From NCBI GenBank assembly GCA_012690745.1, contig GCA_012690745.1_4086.2: a stretch of DNA of 64,000 nt; one strand, 5' to 3'. The translations under genes were made by a program, and so were the position numbers. The DNA is from a phage. The notes beneath the pieces were generated by a model. The model made no database searches and was not told the origin of the DNA. It was given only the letters and a program-made list of their open reading frames with translations. Shown here in pieces: positions 27,511-56,093 of this stretch (position 1 is its first letter; every line of letters begins with the position of its first letter).

Positions 27511-27753
27511 ATGAAAGTACTGACAGAACTAGAAATGTATCATAGATTTAATAAGTACTATCATTTACTTAAGCCTATACAGAGGATTAAATGTCCATTT
27601 GAAGAGAAACAGGTTTTAATCTATGAGCACAAGTTCTTTGTATCATTAGGTACAGATCAACAAGAGTACTATTTGACGTTGTACTTGATTACATTAATAG
27701 ATTTAATTCACTATAAAACCAAACAAGCTAATAAAGAGAAATATGAAAACTAA
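27511..27753 (+). CDS. small paralog family member 27
   Basis: Trimmed from track 27478 to ATG 27511; motif SLGTDQQEYYL. Confidence 0.55.
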   Translation: MKVLTELEMYHRFNKYYHLLKPIQRIKCPFEEKQVLIYEHKFFVSLGTDQQEYYLTLYLITLIDLIHYKTKQANKEKYEN

Positions 27754-28087
27754 TATACAACTCAAGGTATATAAATCATTTGAACATACATATATCAAAA
27801 GTAGTCTATGTAGAGATGTAATGGATTACAAGGGTAAGCCATTCACAATTACCTATGATTCTTATGTTAGTGATTTATATATATCATTTGTTAATTACGA
27901 AAATAAAATATACAAGCACGTTGATATTAAAGATTTAAGTACTTTATCACCAGAGGAATACTTTCAGGAATCATTAGTATGGGATTTAGAGTTTCCTATG
28001 CCATTAGTACATAAGATGATAGTACTAATGAAAGAATCTAAACAGGAGCCTAATGGTGATTATGAAGAACACACAGTTGAGTATTAA
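27743..28087 (+). CDS. EYFQ-motif paralog family member
   Basis: Track ORF; motif SPEEYFQESLVWD. Confidence 0.6.
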   Translation: MKTNIQLKVYKSFEHTYIKSSLCRDVMDYKGKPFTITYDSYVSDLYISFVNYENKIYKHVDIKDLSTLSPEEYFQESLVWDLEFPMPLVHKMIVLMKESKQEPNGDYEEHTVEY

Positions 28088-28457
28088 AAGTACTGATAAT
28101 ACTAAGAGTTATACAAGCTCAAGTACTGTGACAATCGAAGTGAATTCTATTAATGCTGGTAATGCAGTAGATAAGTTCTTTATTGCTCAAGGGTACAGGA
28201 AAGATATTCATCAATACTGTTCAGTATATGGGGAGTACAATTCTACTGAAGATATAATTTATTGGTCAACACATCAAGATTATATAACTAAAATTGGCGT
28301 TCCAGATGTTAGTACTTTATCTGAAGAAGAATACTTTCAGTACAGCTTAGTACATGATGTACCTATACCTTTAGAGTTGCTCAAGGGTATACAGGAAGAG
28401 GTTCATAAGCTTAAATCCATGAGTTCAGGTACTTTCATTAGAACAGTGCAATACTAG
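28053..28457 (+). CDS. EYFQ-motif paralog family member
   Basis: Track ORF; motif SEEEYFQYSLVHD; start uncertain (35-nt out-of-frame overlap). Confidence 0.5.
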   Translation: MVIMKNTQLSIKSTDNTKSYTSSSTVTIEVNSINAGNAVDKFFIAQGYRKDIHQYCSVYGEYNSTEDIIYWSTHQDYITKIGVPDVSTLSEEEYFQYSLVHDVPIPLELLKGIQEEVHKLKSMSSGTFIRTVQY

Positions 28458-28458
28458 C

Positions 28459-28487
28459 TTGACAGTACTTTTCATTACTGATATAGT
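28459..28487 (+). promoter_or_regulatory. sigma70-like promoter inside the array
   Basis: -35 TTGACA 28459-28464, 17-nt spacer, -10 TATAGT 28482-28487. Confidence 0.55.
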
Positions 28488-28516
28488 ACTTGTACGTTAA
28501 TCATAGGGTAAAAATT

Positions 28517-28762
28517 ATGTTAAATTTTTTAAATTTCCTTATCGTTTTGTGTATTGTTCTTGGGATTGCACCATTTGTATTGTATTTCATGGATTCAGAT
28601 GAAATGCAGAAGATGAATTGCACAAGGACAGGACAGAGTAGAGAAGAGACGATTCTTATGCCTGTTACGGTTATTGTTAACAACATGCCCATTACAAACA
28701 TGGTCCCTACCCTAACGACAACGTACCAGTACTCTTGTACAGATGGAGAGAGGTGGAGATGA
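28517..28762 (+). CDS. hypothetical small membrane protein
   Basis: Trimmed from track 28490 to ATG 28517 (RBS AGGG); N-terminal hydrophobic helix. Confidence 0.5.
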   Translation: MLNFLNFLIVLCIVLGIAPFVLYFMDSDEMQKMNCTRTGQSREETILMPVTVIVNNMPITNMVPTLTTTYQYSCTDGERWR

Positions 28763-29079
28763 AATTTAATATAGCAAAAACATCTAATATATGTATATTT
28801 GGTTATGCCGAAGAGTTGGGTGATATTGACATTCTTTTGTACAAAAAAGATGGTGTTATGCATTTCAAGTACCAGGATGAAGAGGCAGACAATTATTCTT
28901 TACCTAATTTAGTACAAATGCAGGAAGAGGAATTATTCCAGTACAGCTTAGTATATGACATTGATATTTGCACGATGCCAGTACTAATTAATATTCAAAA
29001 AGTGATGCTCGATGTGTTTGATAGGCTAATACAAGGCACACAAGGAAGAACCATATATGTCAATGTACAAGACAATTAA
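28759..29079 (+). CDS. EYFQ-motif paralog family member
   Basis: Trimmed from track 28735 to ATG 28759 (ATGA overlap); motif QEEELFQYSLVYD. Confidence 0.55.
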   Translation: MKFNIAKTSNICIFGYAEELGDIDILLYKKDGVMHFKYQDEEADNYSLPNLVQMQEEELFQYSLVYDIDICTMPVLINIQKVMLDVFDRLIQGTQGRTIYVNVQDN

Positions 29080-30206: not shown

Positions 30207-30214
30207 GGCAAATT

Positions 30215-30760
30215 ATGAATGATATAGAATTATTAGCACACAAGATTAGTACAATAATGCTTATCCTCAATAACAACCATCCTATATCGCAGATAGATGG
30301 AATCCTGAGTCAGAGGACAGGTGGTAGTTTATATTTGACATTAACAGAGGTTATCGCAAGGAATTACATTGATATTGAAATCGAGAACAGTGATGCATCA
30401 GGAAAGGTTGATGTAGGTGCATTAATCAGTTCAAATCCAGTATCAGCATCACCATTGACAAGAAATGTAAGTACAGGATTCGAAGGGTATTTGTGGTACA
30501 ATACCAATGATGATTATTTTATATATCAGCATTCCAATACAAATTATGATGAAGACAAATTTCAGTTCATAGACCCTTATGATGAAGCTGAAGTATTTCA
30601 AAAATCATTAATCACAAAACCGCATGAGATGATGTATCTAATGTTATTCAGTACAATGCATTTGAATCCATTAATTAAAGGTTTAAAATTTTATATTCAA
30701 TTGAATTTAGTCCATGTAGTTTATGATTTATTAATGCAAGGATATAGTTATGAAGTATAA
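30215..30760 (+). CDS. EYFQ-motif paralog family member
   Basis: Motif DEAEVFQKSLI. Confidence 0.55.
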   Translation: MNDIELLAHKISTIMLILNNNHPISQIDGILSQRTGGSLYLTLTEVIARNYIDIEIENSDASGKVDVGALISSNPVSASPLTRNVSTGFEGYLWYNTNDDYFIYQHSNTNYDEDKFQFIDPYDEAEVFQKSLITKPHEMMYLMLFSTMHLNPLIKGLKFYIQLNLVHVVYDLLMQGYSYEV

Positions 30761-31067
30761 AATGCTTAATACAGCATCAGGGATATATGTAGAATTAGAA
30801 TCCGATTATTCAGATGGATGGAATTTTATTAAACGACACGATAGAAATACATGGTACATGGCACATTTGGATAATGACGTAATAATAGATAATTTTGTCG
30901 ATTTTAATACATTATCAGAAGAAGAATTTTTCCAAATGCAATTTGTGCTTGATACAAATGGATTTGATTTGCTATTATTAAGGAATATTCAGAAAGCGGT
31001 TAATGAATTCATAATCCAAAATAATTCAGGTAAAATGGGGATGTTCCATGATCTGGAAGTACAATGA
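30750..31067 (+). CDS. EYFQ-motif paralog family member
   Basis: Motif SEEEFFQMQFVLD. Confidence 0.55.
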   Translation: MKYKMLNTASGIYVELESDYSDGWNFIKRHDRNTWYMAHLDNDVIIDNFVDFNTLSEEEFFQMQFVLDTNGFDLLLLRNIQKAVNEFIIQNNSGKMGMFHDLEVQ

Positions 31068-31623
31068 AAGCAATGATTACAATGAAATTCAGTACACCTA
31101 CGCTAATGCAATCCTTATGGGACAAAAGTTAGCTTGTATTGTTGCAGCCTTATATAATGCCCAGAAATATCACAAGCGTCATTTCCACAAATGTATTGGT
31201 ATTATTCCATCGAAGTACAATACATATATTGCGTGCACGAGTCATTTTGATAAACGATTCAATACACCTGATACCCCAAATTCCTGTAGTGTTATTGGTC
31301 TTTTGGATTTCGCACCTGGTGCTGTTATTGGAAAGAATGATTTAGAGTACGCATGGTATAATAAAAATGCCCCGTTAGTAATGGTAAAATATGATACAGA
31401 AACGAATAAAACAATAGAGTACAATACATATAAATCAGAGGAAGAATTTTTCCAAGGTTCATTGCTTGTACCAGTGCGTTTGTTATTTTATAATGTCATA
31501 ATGAGTACAGTACACAATAGTCCATTACACAAGAATCACAAAATTAATTTCAATTTTTGTGCTTATGCGATTGATGGTGTGTATGAGTGTTTAATGGAGG
31601 TATTGAGTTATGAAGCTGAATAA
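31048..31623 (+). CDS. EYFQ-motif paralog family member
   Basis: Motif SEEEFFQGSLLV. Confidence 0.55.
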   Translation: MIWKYNESNDYNEIQYTYANAILMGQKLACIVAALYNAQKYHKRHFHKCIGIIPSKYNTYIACTSHFDKRFNTPDTPNSCSVIGLLDFAPGAVIGKNDLEYAWYNKNAPLVMVKYDTETNKTIEYNTYKSEEEFFQGSLLVPVRLLFYNVIMSTVHNSPLHKNHKINFNFCAYAIDGVYECLMEVLSYEAE

Positions 31624-31951
31624 TACATTTGATATTAATAAGTTAAGAGAATGGTTTTATAGTATTGAAATTGAAGCCATCCCGTATCATAGATATGAAC
31701 AATATAATTTAACCAGTATTGATATCAGTGAGTTGTACGCGTATTATCAAAGTGCATTAGAGATGCATAAGTTATTTTTGAGTACAGATTTTGTTCTAAA
31801 TTACAATTTTGAGGAATTTAAAAATTATAATTTAGTACAGAAATATGTAGTAGCAAAGTACATGTACCTTCAAGGAATTACAAGTAATTTGGAATTCAAT
31901 ACAGTCCTTGCTTTAGTTGAGGTAATTTTATGCAGTACATGTATGATTTAG
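31610..31951 (+). CDS. EYFQ-motif paralog family member (divergent)
   Basis: Variant motif SELYAYYQSALEM. Confidence 0.45.
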   Translation: MKLNNTFDINKLREWFYSIEIEAIPYHRYEQYNLTSIDISELYAYYQSALEMHKLFLSTDFVLNYNFEEFKNYNLVQKYVVAKYMYLQGITSNLEFNTVLALVEVILCSTCMI

Positions 31952-32436
31952 AGTTTAGTTTAGATGCTGCCTTTAAATTTGTTCACAAGATAGAAACAAT
32001 ATACAGTACATTATGTGCAATACAATCAGTATCATCTGAGTTTGATGTTGGTGAAAAATATCAGGTATGGAATAATACATTTCTAAACAAAGAACGTTGC
32101 TCTACGGGGTTTAATATTTTAACATTTAATCCCAGCAATTGTTACCCAGAGAAGCATGAACGTTATCCGAATGACGACATGTGGTTTGATTACACAAAAG
32201 ATGGTGATATGTCATCCCTTGTAGTTCCTGATGATTTTAATGCCGAAGATTTAACGGAAGAGTGGTGGTTTCAACAGAATTTAGTACACGATGATATTGA
32301 TTTATTTTTTTATGTAGTATTTAAAATGCTTTACCACAACAATATATTAAAAGATAGTGTGTTTTTTTCATGTCTATATATTGATGATTTGTACAATGAA
32401 ATCCAAATCAACATTCCCAGCACGCCTGTATCGTAA
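31930..32436 (+). CDS. EYFQ-motif paralog family member
   Basis: Motif TEEWWFQQNLVHD. Confidence 0.55.
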   Translation: MQYMYDLEFSLDAAFKFVHKIETIYSTLCAIQSVSSEFDVGEKYQVWNNTFLNKERCSTGFNILTFNPSNCYPEKHERYPNDDMWFDYTKDGDMSSLVVPDDFNAEDLTEEWWFQQNLVHDDIDLFFYVVFKMLYHNNILKDSVFFSCLYIDDLYNEIQINIPSTPVS

Positions 32437-32461
32437 GATATGGGCTTTTTTCGTTTTGGTA

Positions 32462-32490
32462 TTGACAAAGAAGTGCAAAGCTGTTATCAT
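32462..32490 (+). promoter_or_regulatory. sigma70-like promoter inside the array
   Basis: -35 TTGACA 32462-32467, 17-nt spacer, -10 TATCAT 32485-32490. Confidence 0.5.
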
Positions 32491-32518
32491 GTGTAATCAT
32501 TTTAAAGGAGAACATATA

Positions 32519-33031
32519 GTGAGTTTCATAATCCCAAGTACATACGAAGATGCATCAAGTGCAGTTCATAAGATTCATTATATTTTTAATTTAATTATTA
32601 GATCTGCAAAAATTAAAATGTATGCACCTCTTGTGGAATACGATAAAAATGAGGAAATTTTTGTTAGCACAGACCAAATTATTTTTCCATATTTCAATGA
32701 AGATAGATTGTGGTTCATGCATTTAGCTGCATTACAAAAATATAAAATGTCAATTCGTAATAATTTGGATATACCGTTATATCATCCTGATATTGGAGAG
32801 GATGAATATTTTCAGTACAGTACAGTACACCGCCATGAAGATATCTTTGTTGCTATGCTTATTGCTAAATTGAATACCGTTGATTTGGAGCAGTACAAAT
32901 ACAATAATAAATCATGTAAGATCATAATCCCTGCATTCATAGCTCTTTATGATTATGTGGTGCATAACAAAAAAGATGATACATATGCTTTCAATGAAGA
33001 GTATTTGAATTTTTTTAAGGAGAACATATGA
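32519..33031 (+). CDS. EYFQ-motif paralog family member
   Basis: Start moved to GTG 32519 (RBS AAGGAG 8 nt upstream); motif GEDEYFQYSTVH. Confidence 0.5.
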   Translation: MSFIIPSTYEDASSAVHKIHYIFNLIIRSAKIKMYAPLVEYDKNEEIFVSTDQIIFPYFNEDRLWFMHLAALQKYKMSIRNNLDIPLYHPDIGEDEYFQYSTVHRHEDIFVAMLIAKLNTVDLEQYKYNNKSCKIIIPAFIALYDYVVHNKKDDTYAFNEEYLNFFKENI

Positions 33032-33555
33032 GCAGTGAAGTGCTGAAATCAATGACATTCAATGAAATTGGTACATTTAAAGATAAGATCATTGATTGCA
33101 TTGAATACATGATTTGTAGTAATATCGAAAGTATCGAGATATTTAACAAGACAAATCGCTCTTACCATATGATGTACATTGCAAACAATAATGGTATCAT
33201 TCCATTTATTTCGGATAGTACAATATGGTACGCATGTGATACGAAAAAAACCACAATAGGTTTACATTCATTTGAGACACATTATGATCTAATTATTCCT
33301 GAACATTGTATGCAAGAAGAAGAATATTTTCAAATGCAATGTATACATTCACCATTAGTGTTGTTTAGTTTATATATTATACCTTATATCACCAAATGTG
33401 TTCATGAGAATAAAGCTCCGTGGAATCATGAATTTGTATCGTTGAAGTTATTGTATAATGTATTAGTAGAATATTATGATTACAGGCACAATGGTACAAT
33501 CAGTGATGTATGGGATTTTGAATCGCTAAGGGTGAAAACATACACAGGTGAATGA
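33028..33555 (+). CDS. EYFQ-motif paralog family member
   Basis: ATGA overlap; motif QEEEYFQMQCIH. Confidence 0.55.
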   Translation: MSSEVLKSMTFNEIGTFKDKIIDCIEYMICSNIESIEIFNKTNRSYHMMYIANNNGIIPFISDSTIWYACDTKKTTIGLHSFETHYDLIIPEHCMQEEEYFQMQCIHSPLVLFSLYIIPYITKCVHENKAPWNHEFVSLKLLYNVLVEYYDYRHNGTISDVWDFESLRVKTYTGE

Positions 33556-34171
33556 TATGACCAGAATTAAAATGTATGATTTGATGCTGTACAGTAAAAT
33601 TGCCATTCCAGTGCTTAATAAAGTGCTGGATGCATTCATTGCCAAATACCCTGAGAATTCAGTGTTATGTATTCCATTTAGTGTTCCAGATAAAGATGAT
33701 ATATTCCAAGTGAATGTCAGTACACGTGGTATTACATTGCAGCAGAAATATATGGATACGGAATATTATGGAATAAAGTTGGATTCAGTACAGGGTTCTA
33801 AATCAGCCTATGATTTTTTTGTTCCTAATAACATCGAGTCATGGGAAACAAACATTTCAAAGAAAGATGAAAATGATGTTCCTATTAGTGGTGTGTTCAA
33901 CAATAAAGTTTTTTATTATTACGAAACCGACAAATTCCCTGAAGAGTTATATTACAATTCAGAAATGAATGAAGATGTAGATGCATTCATGTTTCAATTA
34001 TCGTTAGTACATGATATCATTGATGTTCAAGAGTTAAGAGCAGAAATCAATTTAGCTAAAGAGTTATCGGACATGCTCCCACCGTTTAGTATGCTTTTTT
34101 GTGAAGGAGGTTATTTTTCAAAAGAAGTGTTTGAACATTTCGTAGATGTTGTAAAAGGGTTGGATATATAG
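33548..34171 (+). CDS. EYFQ-motif paralog family member
   Basis: Motif DAFMFQLSLVHD. Confidence 0.55.
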   Translation: MNDMTRIKMYDLMLYSKIAIPVLNKVLDAFIAKYPENSVLCIPFSVPDKDDIFQVNVSTRGITLQQKYMDTEYYGIKLDSVQGSKSAYDFFVPNNIESWETNISKKDENDVPISGVFNNKVFYYYETDKFPEELYYNSEMNEDVDAFMFQLSLVHDIIDVQELRAEINLAKELSDMLPPFSMLFCEGGYFSKEVFEHFVDVVKGLDI

Positions 34172-34375: not shown

Positions 34376-34891
34376 ATGCATCAACACAAGCATCATTCAT
34401 ATGATTTTGCAATTAACATTATGAAGTTTATTCGAGCGTTGGAGGATGGGAAGCTTAGTCATAAGTACAGGAAAGAGGGTAACAATTGGTTCAGAAATGA
34501 TTCCGAGTTCAGTTGTCATAAAATCGTGTATAGTAATCAGTACAGTGCCAATTACCTACAAGATGTAGTGATGTGTTTTGAATACGTGTTGCAGTTCAGG
34601 GGTTCAATCCAAGATGAGTTGATGGAGAACATGTACATCCGATACCTTCCAATGCTCAAAGATGAAAATGTATTATTAAATTCAATATACCAACGAGTTC
34701 GTGAAATTGAGTGCAGGGATATATTAGATACAGAAGAATCGTATTTCCAGCAATCCCTGATTTATTCACCTGATTTATTACAGGTACATAATTTGTTTAA
34801 TACATTACGTCAGAACATCAGTACAGACATATTTTTGTCATTATCGGATTATGATACATTTGTCAAAGATTTAGAGGAAATAGGTTTATGA
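34376..34891 (+). CDS. EYFQ-motif paralog family member
   Basis: Motif TEESYFQQSLIY. Confidence 0.55.
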   Translation: MHQHKHHSYDFAINIMKFIRALEDGKLSHKYRKEGNNWFRNDSEFSCHKIVYSNQYSANYLQDVVMCFEYVLQFRGSIQDELMENMYIRYLPMLKDENVLLNSIYQRVREIECRDILDTEESYFQQSLIYSPDLLQVHNLFNTLRQNISTDIFLSLSDYDTFVKDLEEIGL

Positions 34892-35232
34892 GTCGATTTT
34901 CGGTTTATATAGTAAACGTCAGTAAAGATGGTAGTTTAATTGAATTTGATGTAGTTGATAACAATGATAATTCATATGGTATTAAGGTACAGGACAATGA
35001 TGTACAGTTCAGTACAAGGACAAATTTTGAGAATCCAGTCCAAGTTCCGAATTTCATAGAAGATGAAGCTGCACGATTCCAATACGAAACGGCCTTTGAT
35101 AATGTACATATGCATATTATTATGCAACAAAGTTTAGTTCAATTAGTTCCTTTGTTCAGACAAAATATATATGTACATGAAGTGTCGATTAATGGCATTC
35201 AAAGTTCCGTATTGTTCGATACAAATATGTAA
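34888..35232 (+). CDS. EYFQ-motif paralog family member (divergent)
   Basis: ATGA overlap; motif DEAARFQYETAFD. Confidence 0.5.
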   Translation: MSRFSVYIVNVSKDGSLIEFDVVDNNDNSYGIKVQDNDVQFSTRTNFENPVQVPNFIEDEAARFQYETAFDNVHMHIIMQQSLVQLVPLFRQNIYVHEVSINGIQSSVLFDTNM

Positions 35233-35242
35233 GGAAAGTACA

Positions 35243-35794
35243 ATGAGTTCAATGAGTTTATTAGATACATTAGAAAAAGACAGAAGTGCAATTAAGCGTT
35301 TAAAAGAGCAAGTACAAAAGATTGTATACAACGTTGATAAGTTTGAGGTTCCCGGAAGATTTGGTGATATTTCCCATACGGAGATCAAATCCCTTAAGTC
35401 AGATTTGTTGATTAAAAATAAAAATGGGTTGATTTTAGTTTTGAGTTCAGATATGATGGGGGCAACACATAGTTATAATGCCGTATCGGTGCGTTCCGAG
35501 TGTGAAGGTATATATCTATCACAGGGTTTCAATAGCGAGACACAGGTTTGTTTTTGTGATGCAGTACATGACCCTATGAAGTTCACGAGAAGTGAAGCCC
35601 AAGCGTTATTAGAGCTATCAGACGAGAGTTTGTTTCAGTACAGTACAATGTATGACAATGATAAGCTTCGTTGTATGTACGCTGTAAAGCATTATACACA
35701 GGAGTTTTCTGGATTTGCATACCTTTTAGTTAGAACCAATACCAGATATATTGATATGTTAGAAGATTACATCGATAAAGTTGTTAATGTATGA
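35243..35794 (+). CDS. EYFQ-motif paralog family member
   Basis: Trimmed from track 35171 to ATG 35243 (RBS AAGGAAAG); motif DESLFQYSTMYD. Confidence 0.55.
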   Translation: MSSMSLLDTLEKDRSAIKRLKEQVQKIVYNVDKFEVPGRFGDISHTEIKSLKSDLLIKNKNGLILVLSSDMMGATHSYNAVSVRSECEGIYLSQGFNSETQVCFCDAVHDPMKFTRSEAQALLELSDESLFQYSTMYDNDKLRCMYAVKHYTQEFSGFAYLLVRTNTRYIDMLEDYIDKVVNV

Positions 35795-36389: not shown

Positions 36390-36585
36390 AGACGTTTCAT
36401 TTTGACAGGCCGCAGGGGGGTCAAAAAAATTTCCGCTGAAAAACATGCTAAGGTATATGTTTAATATAAAGTTTTATATTGTGTTTTTCAGAGTACAGTT
36501 CATGTTTCCTGAAACAAAAAATACCCCGCCGCCGAACGTTCTCCTTATATTGGAGTTTACCTTATTAATTATAGTAGAGATTAAG

Positions 36586-36963: not shown

Positions 36964-37124
36964 TGGAATTTGATTTTTTAATATCAGTACATTCTTTTAA
37001 GCACAGTTATCAGTACTTTTGTAATTTAAACAAAGGTGATTTGATTATGGATACAGATACAGAGGCTGTATACAGTTCTAATATTCTGTACAAATTCAGT
37101 ACTAATCTGAAGGAGATTTTATGA
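36963..37124 (+). pseudogene. truncated N-terminal duplicate of the 37492 paralog (53 codons)
   Basis: MEFDFLISVHSFKHSYQYFCNLNKGDL is near-identical to N-terminus of 37492..37848 but ORF ends after 53 codons. Confidence 0.45.
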
Positions 37125-38705: not shown

Positions 38706-38706
38706 A

Positions 38707-48222: not shown

Positions 48223-48733
48223 AGATGATATTCTAATTAGACTAATCAACAGTCTGTTAAATTTCGTGAATAGTGCCAGTGATACACACAATATAGGTGA
48301 CATTGAATTCAAATCATTTGGAATGTACGGTGAGGAAAAAACATATTATGCATCAATGAAATTCCAAGATTATTATGAAATGTTAGTTTCATTATCATAC
48401 GAAGATGTGGACCCAAGATGGAGTTCCAGTATTTCACTATCGAGAATGGTAATTCGTAGTAAACATCGTTACATTTCGTCAAAGAATACTCCCAACTTGT
48501 TTGATATTGTTTTAAATGAAAATACCAATCCTATATCTAAACATGATATCGTACCTTTAACTGATGAAGTACTTTTTCAATTGAGTACCATTTGTGATGA
48601 AGATGTGATATCATGTATGAAAATTTATGAGAAGGTTGGGAGTGATATTCCCATGAACTATTACCTAACGATAGATGGAACATACCTCAGAGATGAAGCT
48701 CTAGCGTACATTGACAGTGTTTTACCAAAATAA
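48215..48733 (+). CDS. EYFQ-motif paralog family member
   Basis: Trimmed from track 48167 to ATG 48215 (RBS GGAG); motif TDEVLFQLSTICD. Confidence 0.55.
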   Translation: MDKDDILIRLINSLLNFVNSASDTHNIGDIEFKSFGMYGEEKTYYASMKFQDYYEMLVSLSYEDVDPRWSSSISLSRMVIRSKHRYISSKNTPNLFDIVLNENTNPISKHDIVPLTDEVLFQLSTICDEDVISCMKIYEKVGSDIPMNYYLTIDGTYLRDEALAYIDSVLPK

Positions 48734-48755
48734 AGACCCTTATGGGTCTTTTTGT
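48734..48755 (+). terminator. rho-independent terminator
   Basis: Stem agaccc / gggtct, loop ttat, T tract. Confidence 0.7.
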
Positions 48756-48764: not shown

Positions 48765-48793
48765 TTTACAGTAGCATTTAGATGTGTTATAAT
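48765..48793 (+). promoter_or_regulatory. sigma70-like promoter inside the array
   Basis: -35 TTTACA 48765-48770, 17-nt spacer, TGtTATAAT with -10 at 48788-48793. Confidence 0.6.
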
Positions 48794-48820: not shown

Positions 48821-49387
48821 ATGAGTACTGAATTAATTAAAGAAGTTACCTTACTTCTGAAGCATTGTTTTAAGTTCATTCCTGATACTGGTTCACGCCA
48901 GTACATTAAAGTTAATGAGAAATATAACATCAATATCCTTGTATCTGAAACTGCGAGCAGTTATGCTAACATTGAGTTGGATTCTGAAGAAAAATATACA
49001 GTATTACAAATCATAGCAGATGTACAACGTAAACAAGATTATCGTTCTTCATTTTACAACGATTATCTGTGTGTTTGCTCAAACTTCAGTGAGAATAAAA
49101 TTGTGTATAAGAATTTATACACACATGAAGTGATTGATACATATAATTATAAAATTTCATCTGATGAATACAATGTGCTAATGTTCAACGCAAACCTTTT
49201 GTATGATGCCAGTACTGTACGCTGTTTAGAGTTAGCATATAAAATTCCAAAGATCATGGAAAGAAAAGATTTGATTCACTTTAAAACTATTTTAAAATAC
49301 AGTACAAAAGAATTAGAGGATTTAGTACAGGCTCTTAAGAATTTCATTAATGAACATGTACCTGTTAAATTCGAGGATGCACAATGA
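48821..49387 (+). CDS. hypothetical protein (array member, degenerate motif)
   Basis: Track ORF; RBS AGGAGAAG. Confidence 0.5.
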   Translation: MSTELIKEVTLLLKHCFKFIPDTGSRQYIKVNEKYNINILVSETASSYANIELDSEEKYTVLQIIADVQRKQDYRSSFYNDYLCVCSNFSENKIVYKNLYTHEVIDTYNYKISSDEYNVLMFNANLLYDASTVRCLELAYKIPKIMERKDLIHFKTILKYSTKELEDLVQALKNFINEHVPVKFEDAQ

Positions 49388-49968
49388 ACCATATCAGAAC
49401 TAAAATTTTGAGACTCATGCATGACATTGCAGAACTTTCAGAGATTCATGACATTACAGAAATTGTTGAATTTGATAATTATCGACTGAAAATTGAAAAC
49501 AAATCCAAACATCGTTTTGGTTCAGTTCAGTTGGATGTATATAAAACTTATGAATTTTCTAAAAAAATTAAAAGTTCATGGGATACGATTACTATGTACA
49601 TTCGCACATCCAGAAATCGTGAACGTATTGGTTCTATTTCTTATAATATGGTATTTGCGAATGCATTACATGAAAAAATGAATAAAATTGTAGAATCTAA
49701 TTTCAGTGAAGATGATGGTTTTATTGGGTTGGATGTTCCACCAGAATTAGACCAAAGTGAAGATATTCGAGATGCATTCATTTTCCAGAAATCCTTGTTG
49801 GACAATTACAAAGAATTCGAGTACTTAATGCTTTGTTACGATACTGCAAAAATTCTTGATTGTGGTGAACTAGTTATGTACAATGATTTTATCAATTGCA
49901 AGACTGATGTTCTGAATACACTACTTCAAAATATAGAATCTGTTAAGGAAAAATATGAACGCTTATAG
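49384..49968 (+). CDS. EYFQ-motif paralog family member
   Basis: ATGA overlap; motif RDAFIFQKSLLDN. Confidence 0.55.
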   Translation: MNHIRTKILRLMHDIAELSEIHDITEIVEFDNYRLKIENKSKHRFGSVQLDVYKTYEFSKKIKSSWDTITMYIRTSRNRERIGSISYNMVFANALHEKMNKIVESNFSEDDGFIGLDVPPELDQSEDIRDAFIFQKSLLDNYKEFEYLMLCYDTAKILDCGELVMYNDFINCKTDVLNTLLQNIESVKEKYERL

Positions 49969-50536
49969 TTATATGACAGAACGCCATCAGTTATTATATG
50001 ATATCAGTAAAAAAATGCTATCAATTGTTGGTAGTGCGAAAGAAATTGAAAAACAATATCTCATCCGTGATGTATCAATTTCATCCAAATGTTGGTCAAA
50101 TGAATATTACGACCACGGTATTCTTACTATTTCTGGGGCTAGAAATATTTGTATTGTAAAAAATAAAAGTAAAAGTAATGAAGAGTGTGAGATTAGAACC
50201 GATATACAAATTAAGGATGATGGAAGTTTTTCACATCACCCATTCCATATTAGTACTATTGGTGTTTTATATAATATTAAAGTACTATTCGGTGATGAAG
50301 AGTATGTGTTAAAAGCTATCAATCCAGATTCAAGTACAGTTGAAGAAGAACTGTTCCAGATGAGCACTGTTATACCTGAAGAGGTTCTTAGTACTGTTGT
50401 TTTTTGTAGTTTAATTTATCATACATACAAAAAGAACCAATTCGATTTCCACATTTTAGGAACGTACATCTTCAATACTTTGAATGTTGATCGTTTAAAA
50501 GCATTAAATGCAGCAATGGATAAGGTGCTACAATGA
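49955..50536 (+). CDS. EYFQ-motif paralog family member
   Basis: Motif VEEELFQMSTVIP. Confidence 0.55.
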   Translation: MNAYSYMTERHQLLYDISKKMLSIVGSAKEIEKQYLIRDVSISSKCWSNEYYDHGILTISGARNICIVKNKSKSNEECEIRTDIQIKDDGSFSHHPFHISTIGVLYNIKVLFGDEEYVLKAINPDSSTVEEELFQMSTVIPEEVLSTVVFCSLIYHTYKKNQFDFHILGTYIFNTLNVDRLKALNAAMDKVLQ

Positions 50537-50961
50537 CAAGAGATGATTGTTTGTACATATGGGATATAATTGAAACTACACTTTCAAATCCAGAAAATTA
50601 TAAAACAAAAAAAAGACAACGACACAAAATATGGATAGATTTGTTCGTTGAGGGCATACACGCAGTGACTATTTGGGATTCACCGAGGGCATCAGCATCT
50701 ACTCTATTGGACAATGAATGCATTGATTGCATTAATTCCACTTTTCATCTCTACGGTACTACATTTTTCGGTACATTTCTGGATATTGAAAGTAAAGATG
50801 ATATTGATTCACTTGCGTTACAATACCAAGTACTGTATAATACTAAATTAATTTACGATTTAGTACTAGCTTCTTATGTGTATAAATTAATGATGAAATA
50901 TAATCATATTTCTGTTTCAGTTTATACTAAGGATATTCTTTCATTAAGAGACAAAACATGA
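50533..50961 (+). CDS. hypothetical protein (array member, weak motif)
   Basis: ATGA overlap; weak LALQYQVLYN. Confidence 0.45.
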   Translation: MTRDDCLYIWDIIETTLSNPENYKTKKRQRHKIWIDLFVEGIHAVTIWDSPRASASTLLDNECIDCINSTFHLYGTTFFGTFLDIESKDDIDSLALQYQVLYNTKLIYDLVLASYVYKLMMKYNHISVSVYTKDILSLRDKT

Positions 50962-51467
50962 GTTTATTAAATGCACGCGAATTAGTTGAGATGTATGAGA
51001 TTTTGTCTTCATATAAAAATTCTCATGGAGATGTGATTCTCGACAAAAAGTTCAATGTCAGTGTTGAACATATATCAAATATAGATATGATTTCTTTGGT
51101 GGAAAGTAATAAGTCAGGTCTTGAACGCGATATCATGCGTTTGATTTATATTCCCAAACCATCATATACTAATGATAGTTCAATTAGTAATGAGACATTC
51201 ATGTATAGTCCTGGTACGGATTCTACTATAGTATCGCTGTCCAATAAATCAATGGGTACTTTCCAATTCATCTATACCAGTACTGATAACATTGAAGAAA
51301 TTGAATTTCAAAACAATACATTAAGTCCATGTAGTAGTGTTATAACCTTTATGTCATATCTATGGTCAACTAAAACAAGTGCTGTTGTATATAGTTCAAA
51401 TTATACACAAGATAGTATTGTTGAATCATATAAAGTTCTAAAGGAATACTATGAAAATAACAAATGA
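50958..51467 (+). CDS. EYFQ-motif paralog family member
   Basis: ATGA overlap; motif IEEIEFQNNTLSP. Confidence 0.5.
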   Translation: MSLLNARELVEMYEILSSYKNSHGDVILDKKFNVSVEHISNIDMISLVESNKSGLERDIMRLIYIPKPSYTNDSSISNETFMYSPGTDSTIVSLSNKSMGTFQFIYTSTDNIEEIEFQNNTLSPCSSVITFMSYLWSTKTSAVVYSSNYTQDSIVESYKVLKEYYENNK

Positions 51468-52032
51468 TTTTATTAAAAGTGTAGTACACCCTATGCTTAG
51501 TATTATGAAAAAAATACAGAATCTACCGGAAGATAACGATTACAAGTTTAATCGTTTTGATTCAGATGTGTTTTGTATTGAAATTGAAATTAATAACAAT
51601 CGTAATTTACATTTAAAATTCAAAGAATCTTCGAGTCCGTACTACAACTTTGATATGAATTTTAAAATAGATACTGACATTGAAGAAAACGTAATATCAA
51701 ATCATACTAGCAAAAATGGTTTTATGCATAGAACTACTATGTACAATAATAAAAATAGTATTGTATCTAAATGGAATCATCAATTCACTAAAATTTGTGA
51801 AATTGAATATAATGATTTTGGTGAAGAACATTACTTTCAGTTAAGTACAATTCATGAACTTCCACCATATGATTATGTTAAAACATGGTTTGATATTCAT
51901 AATATAATTGATGATGCAATCAAACTTCCATTTGGTGTGTCAATATCATATACTGCACCTAAAACATTTGTTTTTACTGAAGATATGATTATGAAAAAGA
52001 TATGGGCAATCATCCCACTTATGATGGATTAA
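51451..52032 (+). CDS. EYFQ-motif paralog family member
   Basis: Motif GEEHYFQLSTIHE. Confidence 0.55.
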   Translation: MKITNDFIKSVVHPMLSIMKKIQNLPEDNDYKFNRFDSDVFCIEIEINNNRNLHLKFKESSSPYYNFDMNFKIDTDIEENVISNHTSKNGFMHRTTMYNNKNSIVSKWNHQFTKICEIEYNDFGEEHYFQLSTIHELPPYDYVKTWFDIHNIIDDAIKLPFGVSISYTAPKTFVFTEDMIMKKIWAIIPLMMD

Positions 52033-52038
52033 ATTTGT

Positions 52039-52064
52039 ACCAGGGGTTGACTCTGGTTTTTTTG
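52039..52064 (+). terminator. rho-independent terminator
   Basis: Stem accag / ctggt, 9-nt loop, T7 tract. Confidence 0.6.
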
Positions 52065-52093
52065 TATGATACATTGTCCTAAAGGAGAATTTT

Positions 52094-52645
52094 ATGAACT
52101 ACAATCATGATCTTTTTACATTATGTGCATCCAAATGTGTTGATGGATGGACAGATAAAATCAATACCATAATTCATCGATATCTGGTCTTTAGTTCTCG
52201 TGCACGAAGTGAGGGGGCTATGGATTTCAAATATACACTATCTATTGATGGTGTAACTATCCATGCAGACGAAGAACGTCTGAGCATTAATTTGTATGAT
52301 TCCTGTGTATTTGCTATTCACCAAAAGATGGGGAAAGGATGGGGTTGTAATAACATTAACTCAAAAGCTATCTTTTGGGTTGGTCACCACCAGACAGTAC
52401 TTGATCCTTCAATCAAATCTAATCTTTTATCCGATAATATGGTTTATGATTTATTGTACTCCGAAGAACAACATTTTCAGTTAAGTACATTACATGATCT
52501 GGCACAGTACGAGGATTGTTACAAAACATTAGAACTATGCCATTCCCTTGAACTTAAAGATAAATTGATACAAGTTTACCCTTCATTCTTTCATGAAGAA
52601 GTACAAAGTACACTAGATCATATTTTATATGGATACGATAAATGA
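52094..52645 (+). CDS. EYFQ-motif paralog family member
   Basis: RBS AAAGGAGAA; motif SEEQHFQLSTLHD. Confidence 0.6.
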   Translation: MNYNHDLFTLCASKCVDGWTDKINTIIHRYLVFSSRARSEGAMDFKYTLSIDGVTIHADEERLSINLYDSCVFAIHQKMGKGWGCNNINSKAIFWVGHHQTVLDPSIKSNLLSDNMVYDLLYSEEQHFQLSTLHDLAQYEDCYKTLELCHSLELKDKLIQVYPSFFHEEVQSTLDHILYGYDK

Positions 52646-53244
52646 GAAAAAGTTATCAAGAAGCTATTGACTTAATTCGTGAAGTTATCAAGGTGGCTCC
52701 TGCTGCTATTGAGTTCAAGAAGTCCATATACAAGAAGTATGGTTCAATGTCGAGTATGTGCTTTCAAAAGAAACGTAGAGCATTCACTACCCAGTACTGG
52801 AATGATTCTATCATCCTGAGCAATGAGACTCAGCGTATTTTAACACTAGAATCTGAACCTAATGAGTACGGGGAAGGGAACATTTGTGTACCTGAATATG
52901 ATGAAATTAACTTCAACTGCGGTGATTTTGAAACAACATTATTACTTCATGAGGGTTATCCAGAAGGTGATGTATTAGCTGAGTACAATCCAAAAACTAA
53001 AATTCTCAAAAGAGGAATCCAGTTCACTATTAATAACAAAGATGATGTTCAAGCAGCACTGATGCAACTGAGTACAAGTGAACCTATCACTATTAGTGTA
53101 GAAGAGTTATGGGGAATTATTTCAGTACTCAATGAGTGCTACAAAGTAAAATCATTGCGTAATCACACCCTTATATTGCATACTAATATGGCAAATATAA
53201 AATGTAAGCACATTCAAGAAATGGTGGTTCCAGATGGACTTTAA
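52642..53244 (+). CDS. EYFQ-motif paralog family member (divergent)
   Basis: ATGA overlap; motif VQAALMQLSTSEP. Confidence 0.5.
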   Translation: MRKSYQEAIDLIREVIKVAPAAIEFKKSIYKKYGSMSSMCFQKKRRAFTTQYWNDSIILSNETQRILTLESEPNEYGEGNICVPEYDEINFNCGDFETTLLLHEGYPEGDVLAEYNPKTKILKRGIQFTINNKDDVQAALMQLSTSEPITISVEELWGIISVLNECYKVKSLRNHTLILHTNMANIKCKHIQEMVVPDGL

Positions 53245-53818
53245 AGAAATTGAAAGTAAATTAAAGTACTTCAAAGATATCAAACTTCTTTGGGAAAAGT
53301 ATAAAGTTGATTACAATTTCAGTGATGATGAGACAATAAAATACATTGAGATTAATATCAAAATCAAGTTCAAGAATAATAATTATGGTGAAGTAACCTT
53401 AAATCATACTGGTATATCACTCAAGGACTATGATGGTTCAACACTCGCATATTTTGACTTCACACCAGAACCAGGTGAAACACTACTTAGTGAGATAAAT
53501 TCCTATGACATGGAAGTGTTCGGCGGGAATCCGTTACTGTTCCGACTTTCTGAAGAGTGGAGTGAAGAGTACTACACTTACAAAGATGGTGTAGTACTTG
53601 ATATTCATGGAGAAGTTGTGAATGACTTGGAAGAACGTTTGTTCCAAGAATTGTGTGTTTCAAATACTTCATATGCATACAATCATATCCTTGACATGTT
53701 TGATTTATATAGTAAAATAGATGCTGAAATGAAGGCACATGGTATTCATTACCTTACAATTAACGACTATGCTCAACTCGAAACCGCTGTGAAAGCATTG
53801 ACTAAAGTACTGAAATAG
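53234..53818 (+). CDS. EYFQ-motif paralog family member
   Basis: Motif LEERLFQELCVSN. Confidence 0.5.
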   Translation: MDFKEIESKLKYFKDIKLLWEKYKVDYNFSDDETIKYIEINIKIKFKNNNYGEVTLNHTGISLKDYDGSTLAYFDFTPEPGETLLSEINSYDMEVFGGNPLLFRLSEEWSEEYYTYKDGVVLDIHGEVVNDLEERLFQELCVSNTSYAYNHILDMFDLYSKIDAEMKAHGIHYLTINDYAQLETAVKALTKVLK

Positions 53819-53827
53819 GAATGAAAT

Positions 53828-54241
53828 ATGAAACTGTATCATGCGAGTACTGTAAAAATTGATAACTTTTATATCCCGTATGGTGGTCTTCATATGGGAG
53901 GTAAACACAGTGCTTTGGAAGCTGCATTACGCAAGCTGAGAAGCCCACTGAACGTAGTAGACGCATGTACAGTATACTTGCATACCTTAGAAGTTGATGT
54001 TGATAACGTGCTTCTGTGTGAAGATTTAGGCAGTAATGATGAGTGGCGTTCACTTATTGAGAATTGCACTGCTCAAGGTTATGATGCTGTTCAGTACAAA
54101 AATGATTACGAGCCAGACAATGTTCCTAGCTTTATGATTTGGGATGCATCTAAAGTTCGCATCATTGAAGTTGATGCTATGCATATGGATGAAGCTGAAA
54201 TGATTATCGAAGATTTTCTTGATGAATATGAAGGTGTATAA
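53828..54241 (+). CDS. hypothetical protein (not a family member)
   Basis: Track ORF. Confidence 0.5.
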   Translation: MKLYHASTVKIDNFYIPYGGLHMGGKHSALEAALRKLRSPLNVVDACTVYLHTLEVDVDNVLLCEDLGSNDEWRSLIENCTAQGYDAVQYKNDYEPDNVPSFMIWDASKVRIIEVDAMHMDEAEMIIEDFLDEYEGV

Positions 54242-54777
54242 TGTCTGAACCGATGGTAGCACTGGCACGTACAAAATTACTATTAAAGATTGGTGAGATT
54301 TTTACGGTTCTTCTGTCCAATAATATTGATATTACTGAGCTAGATATTAAGCAACCGTGGGAAGTGACTATGTTCTCGGCGTTCCACCGATTGTCATATA
54401 AAGGTGAAAGTGTTCTTGATTTTAACCCTAAAGCAAAATTCATAGATTATGCTGCGTTGTACAGAGAGTTGCACAGAAATATTTATTCCGGTTGTATAAC
54501 CAATAACTTCAAAGAAATTAAAGTTCAAACTGCATCACATGAGTTCAATGATTTACTTTATCCAGAATTTAATCTAACGGAAGAATTACTCTTTCAGTAC
54601 TCGTTAATTCTCACAAATCTCGAAACACTAGAGTTCTACAAAGAGTTAGTAGATATTTTTATGAATACACGACTTTCAAAAGATATTGTGATATTCTGGT
54701 ATACAGAGCATGTTACGGAGGAATTGCTTACTGAATTTCTTCTAAATATGACAGCTATAAAGGAGAAGTTATGTTAG
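54241..54777 (+). CDS. EYFQ-motif paralog family member
   Basis: Motif TEELLFQYSLILT. Confidence 0.55.
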   Translation: MSEPMVALARTKLLLKIGEIFTVLLSNNIDITELDIKQPWEVTMFSAFHRLSYKGESVLDFNPKAKFIDYAALYRELHRNIYSGCITNNFKEIKVQTASHEFNDLLYPEFNLTEELLFQYSLILTNLETLEFYKELVDIFMNTRLSKDIVIFWYTEHVTEELLTEFLLNMTAIKEKLC

Positions 54778-55244
54778 ATATTTTAGGAAACATCGATACT
54801 GCAAATTATTTTATCCAGGACGCACTGTTCAATACAGTTCAACAAGGATTAGAAGTTCGTCATAACGTTTACCAAGGTGATGGTTATTTCGTTGATATTG
54901 TTGAGGCACGAAAGAATACGTTTAATGTTAACATTACAACACTGGGTAGACAGAACATTGCACGAATTTTAGTAAGTAAAGATGAAATTGTATTGAGATA
55001 CAGTGCTAAGTTTATGTTGACTTATAAGAAAAAAACTGATATGTTCAGTACTAATTTATTTGATGAGCCATTTGACCTTGAAGATATTGAAGCTACTTTC
55101 TTTACTCAAAGTACTATGGTAAAATACACTGATGTTCAATTTTCTGCTGATGTAATGTCAGAAACATTACAAATGATCAAGGTATTATTTTATGCATTTG
55201 AGCAATTTAGAGAAGAAAGAAACAAGGTTAACAACCACAGATGA
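54771..55244 (+). CDS. EYFQ-motif paralog family member (divergent)
   Basis: Motif IEATFFTQSTMVK. Confidence 0.5.
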   Translation: MLDILGNIDTANYFIQDALFNTVQQGLEVRHNVYQGDGYFVDIVEARKNTFNVNITTLGRQNIARILVSKDEIVLRYSAKFMLTYKKKTDMFSTNLFDEPFDLEDIEATFFTQSTMVKYTDVQFSADVMSETLQMIKVLFYAFEQFREERNKVNNHR

Positions 55245-55605
55245 ACTAATAGAGGCGATCACTAAGGAGTCAAAATACCACAAAGGGATTCGTCTATATT
55301 TTATAGATATTGGTTCAATGGAAGGCATATACATTTATGGTTCACAATCTTTATCTTATGATGTAATGCCAAAAAAACATGTAAAAATCTTTTTAGGTTC
55401 AGATAAAAAAACTTTCTTGACAATTAATGATAAAAACGTTATTATGAATTCGTTGGGTCATGATAAGGTGGAAATTGATCTAAACACACTGGAGGATATT
55501 GATTTTTTTCAATACGAGTGTTTAGGTGTTGACTTACATGGCATTAGTAGCGATATGATAAAATCATTAATCAAATATTTCGAAGGTGTTCATAAATGTA
55601 TCTAA
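55192..55605 (+). CDS. EYFQ-motif paralog family member (divergent)
   Basis: Motif EDIDFFQYECLGVD; 52-nt out-of-frame overlap with upstream gene, start uncertain. Confidence 0.45.
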   Translation: MHLSNLEKKETRLTTTDELIEAITKESKYHKGIRLYFIDIGSMEGIYIYGSQSLSYDVMPKKHVKIFLGSDKKTFLTINDKNVIMNSLGHDKVEIDLNTLEDIDFFQYECLGVDLHGISSDMIKSLIKYFEGVHKCI

Positions 55606-56093
55606 CTAAATCAATGAAAAATTCATTTGATAAAATCAAGAGTTGTCTTGATGGGGAAAATATTACAAGTGTTACACAAACTGCTGACCAAATTCAAAGC
55701 AGTTCAAGTGATTGTACTGTTATTTTAGGTTTACATAGTCTACGTTTATCAATAGTAAATAATATTGACAACACTGCTATTGTAATCACACCATGCCATA
55801 TTCAAAATGAGAATGGTGTATATCTTCATCACATGGGAACAGTATTTCATATTTTCAATACAAACGAAAACATTGTTAAGGAATACAAATCTCTTAATAT
55901 TGATTCAGGTGAATTATTTCAAATGAGTACTTTGTACTCATGTAATTTTACAGATACTTCATGTATTTTGCCATTTTTCTTGGAAATTATTAAGAAAATG
56001 GAAAATTTAAAACTTGAATACAATAAAGAAATGGTTCCTGAAGCTATATTAAATATTACTAATGCTATAGAGAAGTATAATGCAGTGACTTAA
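55596..56093 (+). CDS. EYFQ-motif paralog family member
   Basis: Motif DSGELFQMSTLYS. Confidence 0.55.
   Translation: MYLTKSMKNSFDKIKSCLDGENITSVTQTADQIQSSSSDCTVILGLHSLRLSIVNNIDNTAIVITPCHIQNENGVYLHHMGTVFHIFNTNENIVKEYKSLNIDSGELFQMSTLYSCNFTDTSCILPFFLEIIKKMENLKLEYNKEMVPEAILNITNAIEKYNAVT

Follow-up and report, generated by a model that had tools for sequence, protein, structure and literature searches.

Tandem gene families at the ends of viral genomes

Diverged tandem paralogs situated near the genome ends, beside terminal repeats, are a feature of the MGF110, MGF360 and MGF505 families of African swine fever virus (ASFV) and of the terminal host-range families of poxviruses. Among phages, blocks of host-takeover genes are located in or beside the terminal repeats of SPO1 (the terminal-redundancy module) and T5 (the pre-early region), these being composed of unrelated genes, while in bacterial polyimmunity loci the immunity genes of polymorphic toxin systems, diverged and arranged in tandem, are thought to neutralise diverse protein effectors. 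The locus described here, the FQ array, is a tandem array of small genes with an FQ-centred motif in their products, and is found on the + strand of a 64,000-nucleotide stretch of phage DNA (GenBank assembly GCA_012690745.1, contig GCA_012690745.1_4086.2), the whole of which is referred to as the window. Its genes form an ancient, tandem-expanded, selectively retained and fast-evolving family of non-virion proteins at the direct terminal repeat (DTR) junction of Rak2-like phages. The array makes up approximately 8% of a genome of ~350-380 kb and is the largest gene family there, with no known fold or function.

The array belongs to a known kind of locus, namely the tandem multigene families that are specific to particular lineages of large viruses, in that its paralogs lie in tandem near a genome terminus and vary in copy number and content between relatives. 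Its resemblance to the ASFV and poxvirus families extends to the presence of dozens of tandem diverged paralogs near a genome end and beside terminal repeats, to their non-structural nature, lineage-variable copy number and fast evolution, and to the combination of a conserved short core with a variable remainder. It differs from them in having a bacterial host, in showing no sequence or fold relationship to them, and in a copy number that is stable within the genus. Like the blocks of SPO1 and T5, the array comprises many small non-structural genes of unassigned function with host-type promoters at a genome end, but it is built from one expanded family and its early timing is presumed here. 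With polyimmunity loci it has in common tandem, small and highly diverged paralogs, but it is phage-encoded, has no adjacent toxin gene and gave no match to immunity families in Pfam.

Two lineage-specific tandem expansions comparable to the FQ array have been described among jumbo phages, these being the ~35 zinc-ribbon copies of phage G (Iyer et al. 2021, PMC7824862) and an array of phage 121Q (2017, PMC5646251), the latter phage belonging to the same genus as the window. The published remark of Hua et al. (PMC5646251) most probably concerns the array of ~70-amino-acid (aa) proteins that neighbours the FQ array (family A, with 31 copies and visibly similar members) rather than the FQ family, which is far more diverged.

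Identification and extent of the FQ family

The FQ array (28,351 bp) contains 67 open reading frames (ORFs) of at least 40 aa, its first member starting at position 27743 and its last ending at 56093, exactly the limits given in the sequence-only reading, an earlier inspection of the window made without database searches. An all-vs-all BLASTP comparison linked array ORFs in groups of 16, 9, 4 and 2. An iterative hidden Markov model (HMM) search, seeded with nine array ORFs and conducted among the 171 + strand ORFs of the window (E<1e-3), converged on 38 members when window ORFs alone were used, with 0 matches at E<=10 among 1,710 shuffled proteins. Once ORFs of phages A4 and EC.P1 were added, the pooled HMM identified 42 members in the window, 43 in A4 and 45 in EC.P1, its shuffled controls again giving no matches. 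The remaining ORFs were aligned with their orthologues and subjected to profile-profile comparison (hhalign), which gave P values of 2.7e-6 to 5.4e-4 for ORFs 47120, 50533, 55192 and 48821, with the matches located at the motif and the helix that follows it; the lowest P value among ~55 control ORFs was 0.025. The first three of these four ORFs have an orthologue in A4 that is itself an HMM member. ORFs 34888, 50958 and 52642 were identified as weaker, possible members.

The census of the 67 ORFs stands at 42 certain members, with four more classed as probable and three as possible, giving a range of 42-49. A single tandem-amplified and greatly diversified family, as initially proposed, is borne out by the BLASTP groups and by the iterative HMM with its empty shuffled controls. 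The figure of about 50 paralogs is lowered to this range, and the members are not strictly consecutive, some 18-25 unrelated small ORFs, including four stragglers of family A, being interspersed among them.

Similarity between members was found to reach far beyond a motif of eight residues, with HMM alignments spanning 100-160 residues. The strict pattern [DE][DE].[FYWH][FY]Q.[SN] was present in 17 of the 67 array ORFs and in 0 of the 104 ORFs outside the array, compared to a mean of 0.02 in 1,000 shuffles, and this enrichment shows that AT-rich composition is not the cause of the motif. A composition artefact as the source of the family was likewise ruled out by the shuffle controls. Member lengths were determined to be 104-207 aa once an N-terminal over-extension of ORF 32357 (224 aa, more likely 170 aa) was removed, narrowing the 100-225 aa first reported. 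The genes are packed as tightly as had been described, with 60 of 66 junctions either overlapping or separated by a gap of at most 10 nt, and 15 of these taking the form ATGA.

ORFs of the array that do not belong to the family include a small hydrophobic protein (28490), a truncated duplicate (36960) and a well-conserved unrelated gene (53828). Two of these embedded genes are far better conserved than their neighbours. The hydrophobic protein (28490-28762) is 99% identical to its counterpart in EC.P1 with a dN/dS of 0.06, and the 137-aa product of 53828-54241 (phrog_11632) has 88-90% identity in EC.P1 and A4 with a dN/dS of 0.09-0.18.

Sequence anatomy and predicted structure

Pairwise identity to one reference FQ member was found to range from 11 to 57%, being typically 15-20%, and among 160 members from four phages almost nothing is conserved apart from the FQ core and the hydrophobic pattern. 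Within this core the Q occurs in 100% of members and the F in 99%; the S behind them is found in 84%, and the two E residues in front of them in 71-74%. An alignment of 38 sequences contained no conserved stretch of 7-10 columns. The conserved C-terminal core consists of a short helix with EE-x-[YFL]-F-Q, followed by S-[LT]-V-x-D and then a long amphipathic helix, whereas the N-terminal and beta-strand part of the protein varies greatly. Two types of member can be distinguished, a long type (147-207 aa) and a short type (104-137 aa), the latter lacking the N-terminal helix.

An AlphaFold2 (AF2) model of ORF 38214, built from an alignment of 56 sequences, was obtained with a pLDDT of 84.7 and a pTM of 0.81. 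Starting with an N-terminal helix, it continues through a beta region of five strands, the loops of which are of low confidence, to a short helix with EEYYFQQ and a long amphipathic helix, and ends in a short C-terminal strand and helix. The hydrophobic stretch that had been observed after the core corresponds to the long amphipathic helix of this model. Alignment occupancy is lowest and entropy highest in the beta region, with the reverse being true of the motif and the long helix.

The members have a median pI of 4.96 and a median net charge of -9, with 79% possessing a pI <5.5, although some are basic; net charges in the sub-array 38214-40105 are -14 to -26. No transmembrane segments were identified in FQ members. 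Membrane or secreted proteins were considered and ruled out, the hydrophobic segment in question being located solely in the over-extension of one ORF. The products of this lineage-specific multigene family are small, soluble alpha/beta proteins, most of them acidic.

Relatives in sequence and structure databases

The family had not been recognised from its sequence, and the searches conducted agree with this. A Pfam scan of 38 members gave no match at the curated cut-off and no family shared by two members, scans with NCBIfam and PADLOC gave no matches, and neither a sequence nor a fold match was found in the PDB. Foldseek comparison against BFVD returned proteins of Rak2-like phages alone, with 121Q and SP27 followed by RaK2, GAP32 and Serratia phage BF at lower scores. 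Ten members were compared to PHROGs, and nine of these matched at E values of 1e-50 to 1e-135, with the tenth giving a partial match at 2e-8. The groups matched (phrog_9317, 12674, 13866, 15629, 19795, 34516, 34636, 33775 and 38478) are all of unassigned function. PHROGs divides the family into at least nine small groups, whose cross-matches at E values of 1e-3 to 1e-13 show them to be one superfamily.

When 1.84 billion cluster representatives were searched with the profile, only 141 clusters were returned at E<=1e-3, all of 65-200 aa and most with the same motif. They originate from Asteriusvirus phages and from E. coli assemblies with contigs of ~350 kb, the rest being metagenome contigs. 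A search of IMG/VR with a sub-alignment of the short type returned a 121Q contig alone, and tblastn with the consensus sequence of the HMM gave no matches. In the literature, the RaK2 paper states that ~10% of gene products are paralogues, with nothing further on them, and the CBB paper counts 22 paralogous ORFs; no paper describing the FQ family was found.

Distribution and history in Rak2-like phages

Comparison of the 37-45 kb region of the window showed 95-99% identity to the Asteriusvirus jumbo coliphages BF17, CRJP21, G17, phAPEC6, PBECO4 and 121Q, with all of the genes beneath this match annotated as 'hypothetical'. The window is the left end of the genome of an Asteriusvirus, a Rak2-like jumbo coliphage. 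Published DTR sizes are ~20.5-21.5 kb (BF17, fEgEco12 and vB_Ec-M-J), and the end of the annotated DTR of vB_Ec-M-J (1-21,525) aligns at window position ~21,677. The boundary mapped in this way is placed immediately ahead of the promoter of the first family A gene, 68 nt from the gene itself, and it gives the layout of the window as the DTR, family A (21,745-27,753), the FQ array (27,743-56,093) and a conserved gene at 56,136.

This conserved gene (56136-56609; phrog_16362, of unassigned function) was found by tblastn in 72 phage records from ten host genera, mostly at 54-100% identity and at 25-35% in the most distant, and can thus be used as a synteny anchor for Rak2-like phages. It bounds the array in every Rak2-like phage examined (synteny in RaK2, GAP32 and CBB). 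The amplification had been regarded as a property of one genome, which proved not to be so. In addition to the members of A4 and EC.P1, at least 30 HMM members were identified in Klebsiella phage RaK2 (Alcyoneusvirus), 8 in Cronobacter phage GAP32 and 6 in Pectobacterium phage CBB (both Mimasvirus), always upstream of the anchor. The FQ copies adjoin the terminal-repeat boundary where this has been mapped (annotated DTR ends of vB_Ec-M-J and CBB). The terminal repeat annotated in CBB extends to 22,456, and from there to the anchor there are only eight genes, six of them FQ members; in the window the interval from DTR end to anchor is 34.4 kb, and the array starts 6 kb after the DTR boundary. 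The FQ array is a conserved, graded feature of the Rak2-like jumbo phage group, which makes the finding wider in scope than was first thought.

For 16 of the 42 window members, a RaK2 protein outscores every window paralog, and their order is collinear, with 55596 paired to the last RaK2 member and 54241, 51451, 47659 and 45411 to their own counterparts. Much of the expansion must accordingly predate the split of Asteriusvirus and Alcyoneusvirus and have been retained since. The array grew by repeated tandem duplication, with ~6-8 copies in Mimasvirus, at least 30 in Alcyoneusvirus and ~45 in Asteriusvirus. The blocks 36445-38204 and 38214-40535 are recent, and the five recently duplicated tandem copies at 38.2-40.5 kb have 60-78% DNA identity.

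Selection, divergence and recombination

Rates of substitution were calculated for reciprocal-best orthologues in EC.P1, the array DNA of which is ~86% identical. The median dN/dS of FQ genes was 0.24 (n=33), compared to 0.095 for 17 genes on the right flank of the array, and no sign of positive selection was found in the whole-gene values, all of which were <1. The FQ ORFs are intact in both A4 and EC.P1, and sites resembling a Shine-Dalgarno sequence precede 21 of the 42 longest-ORF starts of FQ members, against a background of 8%. These ORFs are real genes kept by purifying selection, yet their proteins evolve several times faster than those of neighbouring core genes.

Compared to A4, a phage of the same genus, collinear FQ orthologues have only 25-40% identity, against 85-99% for flanking genes. 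A megablast comparison of 25 kb of the array to 36 Asteriusvirus records gave coverage from 100% down to 2%, with identity of at most 97.8%, and this wide spread marks the array as a mosaic hot spot in which alleles are exchanged between related phages. A direct repeat of 85 nt (36961-37045 and 37490-37574, 96% identical) gave rise to the truncated ORF 36960. This truncated copy (36960-37124) flanks gene 37121, the A4 orthologue of which (93% identical) is located elsewhere in the A4 array; the repeat and the displaced orthologue are a trace of recent recombination or shuffling.

Transcription signals and absence from the virion

Near-consensus sigma-70 sites were identified in or beside the few intergenic gaps of the array, at 28459, 32462, 36402, 44875 and 48765, and terminators consisting of a hairpin and T-run at 32424, 48732 and 52039. 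The number of promoters agrees with the approximately five noted previously, and there is one terminator more than the two then counted. From the placement of these signals in gaps we infer some six long, translationally coupled operons that would be transcribed by host RNA polymerase. The type of promoter and the position beside the terminal repeat suggest early timing.

The FQ proteins are absent from virions. The virion proteome of phAPEC6 (PMC7247149) contains nothing between gp347 and gp549, and FQ member gp442c of this phage falls within that range. Furthermore, GAP32_048-057 and CBB gp053-060 carry no virion-protein annotation, though a gene further upstream in the same locus has one.

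Possible roles of the FQ proteins

A defined family with its profile, a series of 6, 30 and 45 copies and a confident model make this block of 'hypothetical proteins' tractable, and they raise the question of which selective forces maintain dozens of old but rapidly evolving paralogs at the leading end of such a genome. The FQ products may be an early, cytoplasmic repertoire of binders for host takeover or counter-defence, a reading that we prefer tentatively and with somewhat less than even confidence; the decoy role suggested initially comes close to it. Host sigma-70 RNA polymerase would read the genes as about six polycistronic, translationally coupled operons, probably early in infection given that the array adjoins the terminal repeat, and the products would stay in the cytoplasm and not be packaged into virions. 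There they would act as a repertoire of binders, with the invariant FQ-centred site serving as a common scaffold or engaging a common partner, and with the variable beta region giving each paralog its own host target, be it a takeover target or a defence protein. A bolder proposal, possible but doubtful, is that the array is the bacterial-virus counterpart of the terminal multigene families of poxviruses and asfarviruses, in which case it would be an expandable locus at the terminal-repeat junction where the invariant FQ site of ~45 paralogs docks onto one common partner, each variable beta region captures its own takeover or defence protein of the host, and host range is set as a result. If the products are indeed host-interaction binders, they would supply many new inhibitors of bacterial proteins or of defence systems, and would be a host-range determinant of phages under development for therapy.

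Several points weigh against a binder repertoire. The copy number is stable within Asteriusvirus (42-45), and this, together with paralogs older than the split of the genera and dN/dS well below 1, fits long-held, non-redundant functions as well as it does an arms race. The invariant FQ could equally mean one shared activity rather than many targets, and part of this invariance is circular, HMM membership being itself driven by the motif. No similarity was found between FQ proteins and any known anti-defence or takeover protein. The total of promoter-like sites in the array is not above that of shuffled sequence, and no expression data were found in the literature for any Asteriusvirus, the early timing being our own deduction.

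It is unlikely that the products form one multi-component intracellular assembly, in which translational coupling would fix the ratios of ~45 co-expressed paralogs, and these together would construct, or act as chaperones for, some structure outside the virion, for instance a compartment for replication or assembly. The tight coupling of the genes, the stable copy number with its many ancient paralogs, and an invariant, interface-like motif in all members would suit such an assembly, but copies range from 6 to 45 across genera with similar virions and life style, and positional orthologues that fall to 25-40% identity within one genus are hard to reconcile with a fixed structure.

A special case of the binder repertoire, and a rather improbable one, is that of DNA-mimic or other anti-restriction proteins acting as acidic decoys for DNA-binding defence enzymes. 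The low pI of most members, the very high negative charge of the 38214-40105 subfamily and a location that suggests early expression are in keeping with it. No fold similarity to a known mimic of the Ocr/ArdA type was identified. Some members are basic despite the acidic median, and charge alone is not diagnostic.

Tandem duplication could also have enlarged the genome simply to fill a bigger capsid, leaving copies without individual function, in line with the 'ratchet' idea of genome growth (Hua et al. 2017, PMC5646251) and with the observation that genomes are smaller, and the array only partly covered, in relatives infecting Salmonella. Genome filler of this kind is improbable in view of a dN/dS of ~0.24 even where synonymous sites are saturated, of ORFs that are intact in every genome examined, of the maintenance of an invariant motif, and of the many paralogs that have been retained and have stayed collinear since before Asteriusvirus and Alcyoneusvirus split.

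Little credence can be given to the FQ proteins being protease substrates or decoys that are cleaved by a phage or host protease after the Q of E-E-x-Y-F-Q-x-S. The recognition pattern of TEV/3C-type proteases is E-x-x-Y-x-Q, which the FQ core fits (E at -5/-4 in ~70% of the 160 members), and so strict an invariance of F and Q is unusual for purely structural residues. This fit is probably coincidental, because the motif is confidently predicted (pLDDT >90) to be in a helix inside a folded core and not in an exposed linker; moreover, the residue after the Q is variable with the S one position later, the window yielded no 3C-like protease, and we know of no precedent for cleavage of this kind in phages.

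The diversity-generating or dosage role suggested initially, whether by a dedicated mutagenic mechanism or by copies kept for dosage, could account for the high divergence outside the short core but is the most improbable explanation, since the window contains no near-identical template/variable repeat pairs (its sole close DNA repeats being the 85-nt partial duplication and the sub-array at 38.2-40.5 kb), no reverse-transcriptase domain was found in its two longest ORFs, the only ones long enough, the divergence is ancient, and copies at 15-20% identity cannot substitute for one another.

Other features of the window

The features of the window are compiled in Table 1. Transcription is on the + strand throughout, with 171 non-nested ORFs, and neither tRNA genes nor, in an Rfam scan, any RNA family were identified in the window.

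Table 1. Coordinates of the FQ array, its signals and its flanking elements in the window
Position	Strand	Feature	Evidence
1-21677	+	Probable DTR; small genes with own promoter-hairpin cassettes	vB_Ec-M-J alignment, published DTR sizes
21717-21744	+	Promoter-like site TTGACT-16-TATTAT directly upstream of first family A gene	Sequence scan
21745-27753	+	Family A array, 27 consecutive paralogs of 66-104 aa	BLASTP, family A HMM, phrog_4148, AF2
27743-28087	+	FQ member, short type, 114 aa (SPEEYFQES)	HMM
28053-28457	+	FQ member, 134 aa (SEEEYFQYS)	HMM
28459-28487	+	Promoter-like TTGACA-17-TATAGT with TG, 11/12, in 32-nt gap	Sequence scan
28735-29079	+	FQ member, 114 aa	HMM
30215-30760	+	FQ member, 181 aa	HMM
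30750-31067	+	FQ member, 105 aa	HMM
31048-31623	+	FQ member, 191 aa	HMM
31930-32436	+	FQ member, 168 aa	HMM
32357-33031	+	FQ member, longest ORF 224 aa; likely start GTG 32519 after AAGGAG site, giving 170 aa	HMM
32424-32445	+	Terminator-like hairpin, then T-run	Sequence scan
32462-32490	+	Promoter-like TTGACA-17-TATCAT with TG, 11/12	Sequence scan
33028-33555	+	FQ member, 175 aa	HMM
33548-34171	+	FQ member, 207 aa (DAFMFQLS)	Pooled HMM; borderline in one other test
34376-34891	+	FQ member, 171 aa	HMM
34888-35232	+	Possible FQ member, 114 aa (EAARFQYE)	Large HMM E=5e-4 (0/6,650 shuffles at that score); hhalign P=0.009
35171-35794	+	FQ member, 207 aa	HMM
36402-36430	+	Promoter-like TTGACA-17-AAAAAT in 55-nt gap	Sequence scan
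36445-36963	+	FQ member, 172 aa	HMM
36960-37124	+	Truncated 54-aa copy of gene 37492 N-terminus	BLASTP, DNA repeat
37121-37492	+	FQ member, 123 aa	HMM
37492-37848	+	FQ member, 118 aa	HMM
37845-38204	+	FQ member, 119 aa	HMM
38214-38705	+	FQ member, 163 aa; opens a block of five very acidic copies of recent origin; the modelled protein	HMM, repeats
38707-39177	+	FQ member, 156 aa	HMM, repeats
39174-39617	+	FQ member, 147 aa	HMM, repeats
39617-40105	+	FQ member, 162 aa	HMM, repeats
40083-40535	+	FQ member, 150 aa	HMM, repeats
40532-40846	+	FQ member, 104 aa	HMM
41151-41600	+	FQ member, 149 aa	HMM
41597-42133	+	FQ member, 178 aa (DEQCFQLS)	Pooled HMM
42488-43048	+	FQ member, 186 aa	HMM
43647-44009	+	FQ member, 120 aa	HMM
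43999-44334	+	FQ member, 111 aa	HMM
44324-44878	+	FQ member, 184 aa	HMM
44875-44904	+	Promoter-like TTGACA-18-TATAAT with TG, perfect consensus 12/12, before 59-nt gap	Sequence scan
44938-45414	+	FQ member, 158 aa	HMM
45411-45896	+	FQ member, 161 aa	HMM
45886-46248	+	FQ member, 120 aa	HMM
46232-46645	+	FQ member, 137 aa	HMM
46633-47136	+	FQ member, 167 aa	HMM
47120-47662	+	Probable FQ member, 180 aa, degenerate motif	hhalign P=2.7e-6; A4 orthologue is HMM member; phmmer 2.6e-4 to 48167
47659-48222	+	FQ member, 187 aa	HMM
48167-48733	+	FQ member, 188 aa	HMM
48732-48751	+	Terminator-like hairpin (8 bp), then T-run	Sequence scan
48765-48793	+	Promoter-like TTTACA-17-TATAAT with TG, 11/12	Sequence scan
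48821-49387	+	Probable FQ member, 188 aa	hhalign P=5.4e-4 over 59 columns, motif and following helix
49384-49968	+	FQ member, 194 aa (DAFIFQKS)	Pooled HMM
49955-50536	+	FQ member, 193 aa	HMM
50533-50961	+	Probable FQ member, 142 aa	hhalign P=7.9e-5; A4 orthologue is member
50958-51467	+	Possible FQ member, 169 aa (EEIEFQNN)	hhalign P=1.4e-3
51451-52032	+	FQ member, 193 aa	HMM
52039-52057	+	Terminator-like hairpin, then T7	Sequence scan
52094-52645	+	FQ member, 183 aa	HMM
52642-53244	+	Possible FQ member, 200 aa (AALMQLS)	hhalign P=5.9e-3
53234-53818	+	FQ member, 194 aa (EERLFQEL)	Pooled HMM
54241-54777	+	FQ member, 178 aa	HMM
55192-55605	+	Probable FQ member, 137 aa (EDIDFFQYE)	hhalign P=3.7e-4; A4 orthologue is member
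55596-56093	+	Last FQ member, 165 aa; positional counterpart of last RaK2 member	HMM, RaK2 comparison
56136-56609	+	Conserved anchor gene bounding array	tblastn; synteny in RaK2, GAP32, CBB

The total of 31 family A members in the window, as determined with a family A HMM, is made up of the 27 consecutive genes and of stragglers at 29057, 29242, 42108 and 42307; all-vs-all BLASTP clustered 30 of the ORFs. A family A protein was modelled with AF2 as a three-helix bundle with a pLDDT of 97.3, and the dN/dS of the family compared to EC.P1 was 0.37. Homology between family A and the FQ family was considered and rejected, with hhalign giving P=0.43 and the folds differing (three-helix bundle versus alpha/beta domain).

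Within the probable DTR, nearly every small gene is preceded by a cassette of ~80 nt, of which there are ~25 copies. It consists of a sigma-70-like promoter (AAAGTACTTGCA or TTGACA, N16-17, GTATAAT), a transcribed GC hairpin (CATCAAGGGGAGAATAGTTCTCCCCAC) and a ribosome-binding site. Promoter-early-stem-loop cassettes are generally known from T4-type phages, and those of the window are similar to them. Near the left genome end, 1.5 kb (700-2205) is devoid of ORFs and contains a unit of ~40 nt (TAGACGGCTAAACGGCTAGATGGTTACACGTCTGGAAGTA) in tandem copies along with many CAGTACTG/AGTACT motifs; this stretch may be linked to packaging or replication.

The sole ORFs of the window with functional hints were 17276-17917, with a weak protein-kinase match and a Ser/Thr kinase annotation in several relatives, 60891-61412, encoding a Dam-type N6-adenine methyltransferase (Pfam E=7e-32), and 61409-61942, with a weak cytidylyltransferase-like match. 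At the right edge of the window (63160-64000), the adjacent small ORFs 63160, 63432 and 63689 were found to be paralogs of one another, forming a small tandem family.

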